A DNA stretch of 64,000 nt from Candidatus Omnitrophota bacterium (GTDB lineage Bacteria; Omnitrophota; Gorgyraeia; Zapsychrales; JANLHA01), in NCBI GenBank assembly GCA_963662715.1, contig OY759724.1:588670-652669 (forward strand), given 5' to 3'. The position numbers are program-made. Shown here piece by piece: positions 11,801 to 14,800 of the stretch (positions are counted from its first letter, which is position 1; the number at the start of each line of letters is the position of its first letter).

Positions 11801-14800
11801 AATTTTGTATATAGGTGCGAATCCAATGGTGACGATTGAGCCTGAGTAAGGCCCTTCTCCAATTGTGGTGTTATATTTTGGCGTTCAGCCATATTCTCTT
11901 CAATAATCAGTTTCACTTTATCAAATTGTTCTTCGGTCAAATTTAATTCTGTCTTTATCTTTGAAACAATATGTTCTGCGCTAGGCCATTCTTGCGCATA
12001 GACAGATACACTTAAAATAAAAGATGCAATTAAAACAAAGACTGTTATTTTTCCTTTCATAGTATTTTCTCCTTCTTTTTTTAAAAAATGAATGCGTTTA
12101 ACTATCAAAATATAGTTCAGACTTTTTTATTGACTAAAAATGTTTCTCCATTGCAGGAAAGATTTCAAAAAATGCTGTCCCAATAAAATAGGCGATGATG
12201 ATAACTACTAACGCTATTAGGAAATATTTCCAGGATGAATCCGATTTAAATAAAGCTTTCTTTTCTTTTTTGTCCATGGATTTTCCTCAACTTTTTATTT
12301 TGTTCCTTGACCTAAGCACCTTGCCTTCTTCCTTTTAATTACATTGTAGACCTGATCTATAAAGTATCAATTGTACCGAGGTATAACCCTGCCTGTGGCT
12401 GAATGAGTTGAGAATAAATCCTTTACCATGATGACCCCGGCAGATTTGAAGGCTTCATTTCAATACGTACACGCGGTAAATATTCAGGAAATTTATTTTG
12501 TAAAAATTCAAGAAGTTTTTCCCTAACCTCACAGCGTAAATTCCATGCCGTCAGAAACAACCCCCGATGGCTTCTCCACCCACCCGCAGCCGTTAAAACT
12601 ATTGCAATCAGTTCGTAGAGCCGGCATCCTTGCCAGCCTGCTGCACTGACTCCGGCTGCCAACGTTTCTGCAACGCGGGCATATTTTTACTGTGCGTTAG
12701 AATCACAACCTCGTCACCTATGCGGAATGTTGTTGTTTCATCTGCATGTGAAAACTTGCCATCACGGTAATAGCAGATAACCTTGGCTTCGGCCGGCAAT
12801 TTCAAGGCCTTAGCTGCGACCGCATCTTCCTCCTTTGCAACAAAGGTGAAAAACCGGGCCTCTTCCTTGATAATCGTGGAAAGCTCAACGTTTTCAGTGC
12901 CGCCGGCCATGTCCTCCAGGTAACGGCTGATTGTACGAAAGGGGACGATCGTGTCCTTCAGTCCTACCTCACAACAGATAGCCTCAAATTGCGGATCGCC
13001 GATACTCGTCACAACCCGCTTGAACCCGAGGGAGCGGCCGACGATGCTGGCGATGACGTTATCCTGGTCGCTGTCGGTAAGGCAAAATAGGATGTCGGTC
13101 TGCGTGGGATTGACTTCGCGCAGGATGTTCGGCTGACTGCCATTACCTTGCAGGAAGCTGCAGTCCATATCTTCGGATAATTCATCAATTTTTGCCTTAT
13201 CGTTCTCGATAATGACAACTTCGTGGCCATTTTTGATCAGCTCTTTGGCTGTTCCAATACTCACTTTTCCGGCTCCAACAAAAACGATTCTCATGTTACC
13301 TCCATTCTTTTACCAAACCATGTTCCAGGATACAGCATCACCAACCACGCTATGATTTCAAGTCTTCCCATCAGCATGTCAATACACAAAATCGATTTAA
13401 GCACTGCGGGCAATGCCGGGCTAGTCAGCCCCACAGAAAGGCCCGTCGTTGCTGTTGCGGAAACCACTTCAAATAAGGAGTCGAGTGGACTGTATCCCAT
13501 TGCTACAAACGGCAGCCAAGACAACACAACTACTGCAAAAAATGCCATGATAATGACCAGAGTTGCGTGAATCTCTCTATCCAACAACCGGCGGCCTGCA
13601 AGTCGAGGCTCAATGACAGCATGTTGCGGCAAACAGGTCCGTAGTAGGATTAAACGTAATACGCTTGCCACAATCAACAACCTCAACAATTTGAATCCGC
13701 CCGCGGTCGATCCTGTGCCACCTCCCACAATCATCGAGAAGATCAGTACTAACTTTGAACCTGCATCAAGTTGCGCAACTGACATCGAGGAAAAACCTGT
13801 GTTTGTCTGAGCGGAAATAGCAAGTAATGGTGCGTGATGGAATACTTGTGGCCAAGCCATACCGCCACTTAGCCGCATTAAGGCACCCACCGCTATCGAA
13901 ACGATTAAAGAAGCTATTACAATAGCTTTAAGCTGCAGAAAGTCCACTGCGATACGCTTATTTTTCGTTAACAACCGATAAAATAGCATGAGCGGAACAG
14001 CTCCAGCGAGACAGAGCAGAGTAATCCACACCTGTGCGGGCCAATCTAACATTGCGAGGCTGCTGTCGTAAGGGGAGAATCCTGCAGTCGAAACCGCTGT
14101 AAAAGTATATAGTACCGCGTCGAAAAGCTTCATCCCCAATAACAAAGAACCAATGATGCCCAGGGTGGTCAATATGCTGTAAACTGTTAAAACTCGCCGC
14201 GTGTGTGCACGAATGCCGCCTATTAAATTATCGGGTTCGGTCTCTGTAACAGCCAGGCTCTTCGCAAAAAGACCAGGTTGTATAAAGAAGAACGCTAATG
14301 AGAAGACTAGAATGCCAAGTCCTCCATACCACTGCATCCAAGCTCGGCCAAAAAGAAACGTAGATGATGCTCCAACTAGCGTCTCCGTAGTGGTCAACCC
14401 CGTGGTTGTAATACCGGAGATGACTTCAAATAAGGCATCAAGAAACCCCAACCCCGAACCCATCATAGGGTAGGACATAACGAGCGATGTGAGGAGATAC
14501 ATTAGAGCGACCAACACCATGCCTTCATTAGCCTGCATCCTTACAGGAGTCCGCAGCCTGGCCAGACTGGCTCCAAAGACTGCGAGCATGCCAACCACAA
14601 TACCATAACGCAGGCTGATAGTCAGGTCGCCAAAGATCACCGACATCACCAACGGCACCAGCGTCAGTGCGGCAAGTACAATACACAGCTGACCGAAATA
14701 TTTTAAGACCACACGAAACCTGACAGCATACTTAAGTTCTATTGCCTGTTTAGCCACAATCGGCTCCTATCTCTTATATTAGTCTTAGTCCCGGGTACCA

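Follow-up and report, generated by a model that had tools for sequence, protein, structure and literature searches.

Why does the 3' end of mscS occur twice in a 64-kb stretch of the Candidatus Omnitrophota contig OY759724.1 (the window), once as the end of the intact gene and again as a relic between trkA and a palindromic operator-promoter module? An earlier reading of this DNA without database searches (the sequence-only reading) took the meeting of gene tail and module as a sign that the module had moved here by recombination, bringing a foreign gene tail with it. Comparison with close relatives suggests instead that the trkH-trkA pair (trkHA) was the newcomer. In our judgement it is very probable that a 2.3-kb block, X'-trkH-trkA-Y (14902-12561), in which X' and Y are the end segments, was inserted into the 3' end of the resident mscS and that about 218 nucleotides (nt) of the target, from -133 to +82 relative to the mscS stop codon, were duplicated. 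The relic would then be the displaced copy, and the mscS tail and the left half of the adjoining module (module copy 2) would lie at their ancestral position.

The duplicate itself is real. Comparing the window with itself recovered the mscS tail as a direct repeat with only two copies in the 64 kb (12396-12551 against 14958-15113, 84% ungapped identity), one of five direct-repeat families of at least 40 nt. The full relic, 12396-12560, corresponds to resident mscS 14958-15122; homology begins at about 12551-12560 and ends at 12396, 27 nt beyond the stop codon. The translated relic (TAWNLRCEVREKLLEFLQNKFPEYLPRVRIEMKPSNLPGSSW, then a stop) and the resident tail (TAWKLRCEVREKLLEFLQTKFSECLPRVRIEMKPSNPPGVSR, then a stop) have an identical frame and stop position. 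They have about 43 codons in common, where about 35 had first been counted, and the shared flank of 27 nt is near the 30 or so proposed. The initial figure of about 90% identity holds only as an average. A MAFFT alignment with site counts gave an uneven picture, with about 93% identity in the conserved coding sequence that makes up the first 100 nt or so, and about 68% (19 of 60 differing) in the final 60 nt, which hold the C-terminal extension and the flank.

In each of the 30 best loci the relic can be aligned, codon by codon and once per locus, with the sequence that encodes the MscS C-terminus, which shows the relic to be derived from coding sequence and not from a terminator or repeat family. 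The closest MscS relatives are all from Candidatus Omnitrophota metagenome-assembled genomes, with orthologues 73-93% identical. Relic and resident gene share a C-terminal extension, EMKPSNxPGxSx followed by the stop, that is also found in the relatives L165 and L163, while the 12 best MscS orthologues from the genome collection lack it and end in EMN plus variable residues. As the relic carries this clade-specific EMKPSNxPG, its source was the resident locus of the same clade and not a distant paralogue.

We compared the window with 170 fetched loci, including 80 Omnitrophota loci around mscS and 80 metagenome loci around trkHA; three close relatives, L165, L163 and L164, were reached via protein clusters. 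L165 (JGI Ga0612017_1707) is the empty site for the trkHA insertion. There mscS, ending in the KPSNPPGVS tail, is followed by a 213-nt spacer, the module GGGTTATACCTCGGTACAATTG, g79 and rSAM; identity to the window is 93.5% in mscS and 88% in g79. L165 carries neither trkHA nor the sm47 cassette that follows module copy 2 in the window. No trkH or trkA lay near mscS in any of the 80 Omnitrophota loci, and trkHA is likewise missing behind mscS in the outgroups (L164 and L001-L012, with L007 and L010 among them): L010 reads mscS, module, rSAM, and in L007 rSAM comes directly behind mscS. The ancestral locus before the insertion would have read DUF748-mscS-spacer-module-g79-rSAM. Two further contigs, L166 and L167, stop within mscS, and the region 3' of mscS is absent from both.

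In L164 (89% identical) the mscS stop is directly followed by g79, with no module and no KPSN extension. Compared with it, the clade of the window, L165 and L163 has a spacer and module inserted after mscS (L164 2890-3110; L165 11020-11300; window 14985-15017). This older insertion replaced the mscS stop codon, producing the 10-codon KPSNPPGVS extension.

L163 (ENA ERZ27252234, 5.5 kb, 95-96% identical to the window) has the trkHA insertion. Positions 2451-4829 of L163 are collinear with window 14773-12394 at 95%, through trkH, trkA, Y and the relic. The junction of trkA with the mscS tail is of the same type in the two sequences, and as collinearity runs through it the junction is shared by descent. 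The L163 relic then goes on collinear with L165 for 814 nt, across the whole spacer, the module and g79, so that the full native 213-nt spacer still separates tail from module. The insertion would thus date to a recent ancestor shared with L163, after the L165 lineage had split off.

The edges of the duplication can be placed with the same relatives. In the 3' flank of the resident mscS, collinearity reaches window 14908 for L165 and 14903 for the L163 relic; at 14903, 82 nt beyond the mscS stop, homology stops after ...AATAAGGGTGAA. At the other end of the block, Y joins the mscS tail 133 nt ahead of its stop codon. Direct repeats at 14903-15122 and 12396-12560 therefore bracket the insert, with the right repeat extended by means of the spacer kept in L163, and L165 provides the site without it. 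Thanks to the duplicated tail, the reading frame of the upstream mscS remained complete; the displaced original tail would have stayed beside the spacer and promoter module native to it. The other trkHA loci all match only from 14773-14779 onward, and X' now presumably carries the trkH promoter. The only match to Y in BLAST searches of the window and the 170 loci was L163. The features are listed in the table; gene calls were made with Pfam, and all genes of the region lie on the minus strand.

Features of the mscS-trkHA region of the window, in order of transcription
Feature	Position	Strand	Remarks
DUF748 gene	16251-17180	-	first of the region in transcription order
mscS, resident and intact	14985..16034	-	349 aa, MscS beta-domain; Pfam PF00924, E 3.6e-14
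Left copy of the ~218-nt duplication	14903..15122	-	mscS tail ~133 nt, stop codon and 82 nt of native 3' flank
X'	14774..14902	-	129-nt orphan at left end of inserted block, before trkH ribosome-binding site
trkH	13291..14757	-	488 aa; Pfam PF02386
trkA	12608..13294	-	228 aa; Pfam PF02254
Artefactual ORF call	12423..12662	-	79 codons; first ~34 codons overlap trkA out of frame, rest is relic
Y	12561..12607	-	47-nt spacer from trkA stop to relic, right end of block; common only to L163, 89%
Relic, right copy of the duplication	12396..12560	-	tail 12426-12560, stop codon 12423-12425, flank 12396-12422 (27 nt)
Junction of native-spacer deletion	12394..12395	-	147 nt deleted; CAC/AC microhomology
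Module copy 2	12311..12386	-	palindromic operator 12371-12386 TTATACCTCGGTACAA; -35 TTGATA 12365-12370; -10 TACAAT 12343-12348; leader
sm47-LTXXQ133-RR140 cassette	11258..12323	-	3' of module; window lineage only, absent from L163 and L165
sm47	12134-12277	-	47-codon ORF 3' of module copy 2
LTXXQ133, LTXXQ-motif protein gene	11707-12108	-	after sm47
RR140, receiver-only response regulator	11245-11667	-	after LTXXQ133
g79, small membrane-protein ORF	10839-11078	-	after RR140
rSAM, B12-binding radical-SAM gene	9211-10785	-	last of the region in transcription order

The proximity of relic and module in the window is a later development. In a pairwise alignment of L163 4600-5075 with window 12625-12290, the 147 nt at L163 4829-4975 are missing from the window, and it is this loss of spacer in the window lineage that brought the relic to within 9 nt of the start of module copy 2. 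The repeat end at 12396 is a secondary deletion edge, not the edge of the duplication. Meanwhile the relics have decayed. Measured against L165 over 167 sites, there are 16 differences in the resident tail, 26 in the L163 relic and 31 in the window relic. In L163 a premature in-frame stop (CAA AAA TAA) cuts the relic short, and its conserved REKLLEF motif has undergone the changes L to H and L to F; the window relic has lost an invariant Cys (C to Y).

Within the window relic, about 13 lineage-specific substitutions lie in 12396-12455, beside the deletion junction, with no more than a few elsewhere in the relic. The extra substitutions may have accumulated beside the deletion in the window lineage; error-prone repair and conversion from an unseen copy are both possibilities.

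Could module copy 2 nevertheless have arrived as a unit, with the tail of its preceding gene, from downstream of an mscS paralogue? The sequence-only reading was right that the window has a second module beside a gene-tail relic (5411-5560 matches the tail of the FixJ-type regulator gene at 21045-21194, 73%), and two occurrences of this kind, together with the differing cassettes that modules head in relatives and the recombinant appearance of module copy 2, are what make the idea attractive. We nevertheless regard it as very improbable. The relic has the resident's clade-specific KPSNxPG extension, and L165 (mscS, 213-nt spacer, module, g79) and L010 (mscS, module, rSAM) both have the module behind mscS without trkHA. 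The full spacer is kept beside the L163 relic, and the operator of module copy 2, TTATACCTCGGTACAA, is the variant native to its present position. Nor is there a significant module remnant 3' of the resident mscS: a degraded copy was sought there, and the alignment beyond the first 30 nt scored 20 against a shuffle mean of 20.8, with 602 of 1000 shuffles scoring as high or higher. L165 and L163 already largely refute the move. Of the wider claim that recombination has involved the modules, the chimeric look of module copy 2 stands; the relic and the left half of that module, however, would never have moved. Somewhat less improbable, though improbable still, is a tandem duplication of all or much of mscS in which the trkHA block later replaced or deleted most of the second copy, so that only its tail was left. 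It would leave the identical end state of two direct-orientation tails around trkHA, in a neighbourhood where rearrangements are frequent. However, it needs at least two events with coincident end points, a tandem mscS is present in no relative, and X' and Y have no traces of an mscS body.

It might also be asked whether the relic has a function, encoding a small protein from open reading frame (ORF) 12423-12662 or an internal start, or acting as a cis-acting RNA or terminator in the trkA 3' untranslated region. Its 43 codons are still open in the window and its first 100 nt or so are 93% identical to the resident. Yet the relic has no ATG, no credible ribosome-binding site and no Pfam match, a search of it against Rfam found no family, a minus-strand scan found no terminator between trkA and the module, and its RNA folding is not unusual (z = 0.11). 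The ORF, already suspected of being an artefact, starts at a TTG within another frame of trkA, its L163 orthologue contains a stop, and the substitution load exceeds that of the resident copy; we think a function extremely improbable. With no terminator detectable before the module, the relic might at most be carried on transcripts reading through from trkA. To the last candidate, a conserved terminator or a family of intergenic repeats, which the sequence-only reading had itself named as what would overturn its view, we give practically no credence. Nothing was found in its favour; the similarity has two copies in 64 kb and one per orthologous locus in relatives, unlike a repeat family of the repetitive extragenic palindromic (REP) kind, it aligns at the codon level with MscS C-termini from dozens of genomes, and it has no hairpin followed by a T-run.

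The relic is a pseudogene fragment without function. It is an ordinary insertion scar, though one whose history can be followed unusually well. It is homologous, collinear and in frame with a functional gene over 43 codons and the stop, it lacks the 5' part of mscS and a translation start of its own, and its ORF is under relaxed constraint and is not kept in relatives. Like other bacterial pseudogene fragments at insertion scars it is truncated, has no start codon, is homologous to a neighbouring functional gene, and has a raised substitution rate with a stop codon in the sister lineage. It does not differ from them in any essential way, being unusual only in that an empty site and a sister genome allow it to be dated. 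ORF 12423-12662 should therefore not be annotated as a gene, and the mscS-tail repeat should not be taken as evidence of a mobile promoter.

By what route did trkHA enter? By Pfam the insert encodes TrkH and TrkA only and carries neither a transposase nor an integrase; the repeat search of the window listed no inverted repeats. Target-site duplication by a transposon or insertion sequence resembles the present case in that direct target repeats flank the insert. We rejected it, as such duplications measure 2-14 nt and the one at mscS about 218 nt, with no transposase or integrase and no terminal inverted repeats. We infer that the likeliest route would be a single crossover of a circularised fragment with short homology to the mscS tail; one-sided homology-facilitated illegitimate recombination (HFIR) would be an alternative. 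In E. coli, single crossovers of circularised molecules give duplications of 109-950 bp of the homologous locus (PMC3240628). Campbell-type integration and HFIR both place foreign DNA without mobility genes next to a homology and leave a direct duplication, here of about 218 bp around a 2.3-kb insert. The fit is imperfect: in the donor, the homology would have to be linked to trkHA from the start, and X' remains as unexplained filler. Neither transformation nor conjugation has been demonstrated for Omnitrophota.

A further parallel is found in the effector-immunity loci of Rhs, contact-dependent inhibition (CDI) and type VI secretion systems (T6SS). For displaced 3' gene ends of T6SS and Rhs loci, HFIR anchored on conserved upstream sequence has been proposed (PMC5361080). 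There too an incoming block displaces the resident 3' end, which decays downstream. In those loci, however, the 3' end that the new block brings is not the old one, and displacement recurs under selection, whereas the mscS case duplicates the same tail, leaves the product unchanged and has a single relic.

The trkHA block is, as far as comparison of homologues can tell, foreign to its present position. TrkH has 97% amino acid identity to L163 and at most 78% to the next matches. The named closest homologues belong to Thermodesulfobacteriota, Deltaproteobacteria and Desulfocapsa; matches of Desulfobacterota type reach 71-78%, and those at 76-78% carry no taxonomy. In all 80 metagenome loci trkA is paired with trkH; none of the 80 shares the context seen in the window.

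Several observations weigh against the insertion as we have described it. Base composition adds nothing of its own in favour of a recent foreign origin, as the G+C content at third codon positions (GC3) of trkH and trkA, 0.49 and 0.59, is unremarkable against a window mean of 0.52 (standard deviation 0.09); we set it aside as uninformative. BLAST against the window and all 170 loci found no homologue of X'. The 60 nt at 12396-12455 differ at 16-20 sites from the resident, the L163 relic and L165, which over the matching 60 nt have only 6-8 differences among themselves. A 218-nt target duplication without mobility genes is the signature of no single well-defined mechanism. Finally, trkH in L163 is preceded by genes for N-ATPase alpha and gamma and malic enzyme, not by mscS and X', and this different left side calls for at least one more rearrangement, unless the 5.5-kb contig is an assembly chimera. 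A larger island may have gone into mscS, with its interior lost afterwards in the window lineage; the alternative is that L163 was rearranged or misassembled.

The N-ATPase genes may be informative about such an island. The gamma gene lies directly 5' of trkH in several trkHA relatives (L112, L084, L124, L092), and L163 1-2466 has gamma, then the malic enzyme gene, then trkH. The genome of the window has a 96%-identical gamma elsewhere. L168, a close gamma relative, carries the N-ATPase operon but no trkHA, and the match between it and L163 stops 11 nt past gamma. These arrangements hint at an island for salt adaptation whose trkHA end varies. Lateral transfer is documented for N-ATPase operons (PMC2881411).

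Taken as an insertion into mscS, the locus is a clean and datable case of an apparently horizontally acquired operon entering the 3' end of a gene without inactivating it, with an empty site, a sister genome and an outgroup to date it by. The trkH-trkA pair would here be a recent acquisition, and it is bracketed by direct repeats of about 165 nt that could mediate loss of the operon.

Module copy 2 appears to have a history of its own. Its promoter is the best sigma-70-like match in 12200-15200, at 10 of 12 positions. Up to ...CAATTGAT, through the operator and the -35, all 37 nt are identical to L163, while the next 45 nt or so (spacer, -10 and leader) are only about 65-70% identical, in surroundings that match at 95-96%. 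The right part of module copy 2 and its leader are instead similar to the module in front of sm47 in L002, where sm47-LTXXQ follows a FixJ-type regulator gene and its own module. The module thus appears chimeric, with a native left part and a right part that came with the sm47 cassette. As the cassette is missing from L163 and L165 and identity breaks inside the module, the break would be where the cassette entered; recombination within the module would later have placed sm47-LTXXQ133-RR140 behind module copy 2. The other end of the cassette may have been an AAGGAG-like microhomology in the leader. L163 5043-5528 resumes at window 11257-10772 with 96% identity, within the last four codons of RR140.

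Window 11245-11257, which holds those four codons and the RR140 stop, corresponds to the native-module leader in L163. As the end of RR140 lies in native leader sequence, its 3' end was created by the cassette junction.

The module belongs to a family. The window has copies at 5310-5385, 12311-12386 and 20825-20900, and others lie at L001:201, L002:3248 and 6594, L003:6084, L010:6398 and 11494, and L019:1930 and 5282, with four more in L165 and two in L167. All copies have a 16-nt palindrome of 7-2-7 form, TTrTACC-NN-GGTACAA, abutting a sigma-70-like promoter, TTGAtt-N16-TAcAaT. They head dnaK, sm47-LTXXQ-RR140, RR121 and other cassettes. In the window and six relatives a module lies directly 3' of the genes for HK481, a PAS histidine kinase, and FixJ207, of FixJ/NarL type. 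The 7-2-7 operator of NarL/FixJ regulators consists of two inverted heptamers 2 bp apart, and the module palindrome is probably the operator of a regulator of this type.

An operator-promoter module of this kind heads several stress cassettes, and these cassettes vary in position among close relatives. It is conceivable, though we think it unlikely, that these modules of about 75 nt act as portable recombination anchors, with stress cassettes swapped between module-headed sites without an integrase. Were this so, there would be a regulon-wide shuffling of sm47-LTXXQ-RR, GGDEF-PtsI, RR121, g79-rSAM and dnaK cassettes, and gene-tail relics beside modules would mark upstream break points. We considered module 3 as a chimera formed by deletion between modules, by comparison with L167, and dropped the idea: the region upstream of module 3 is orthologous to that upstream of the second module of L167, placing the deletion ends outside the modules, and only module 2 breaks inside the module.

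Between the FixJ gene and RR121 (window 21077-20974 against L167 4346-7573), the window, set beside L167 and L165, lacks a block consisting of a module, a 158-aa gene, PtsI and Zip. The L165 version of this block also holds GGDEF, and the end points lie outside the modules.

The relic beside module 1 is what remains of the C-terminal helix-turn-helix of the FixJ-type regulator (5424-5561, minus strand), 73% identical to 21045-21194 and 80-81% to the FixJ tails of L165 and L167. A premature stop interrupts this relic, and module 1 and dnaK follow it at a distance of about 40 nt. If the mscS relic is a guide, what it marks may be a disrupted FixJ-module synteny and not the move of a module. Upstream of it, at 5600-6330, are about 770 nt of AT-rich sequence with no ORFs, unusually long in so gene-dense a window.

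One more rearrangement lies close to mscS. L167 (98% identical) has at 10935-13232 a 2.3-kb hsp70 paralogue, 73% identical in nucleotides to the dnaK of the window and with no module in front. It sits exactly between the DUF748 stop and a 45-codon ORF that precedes mscS (window 16247|16236).

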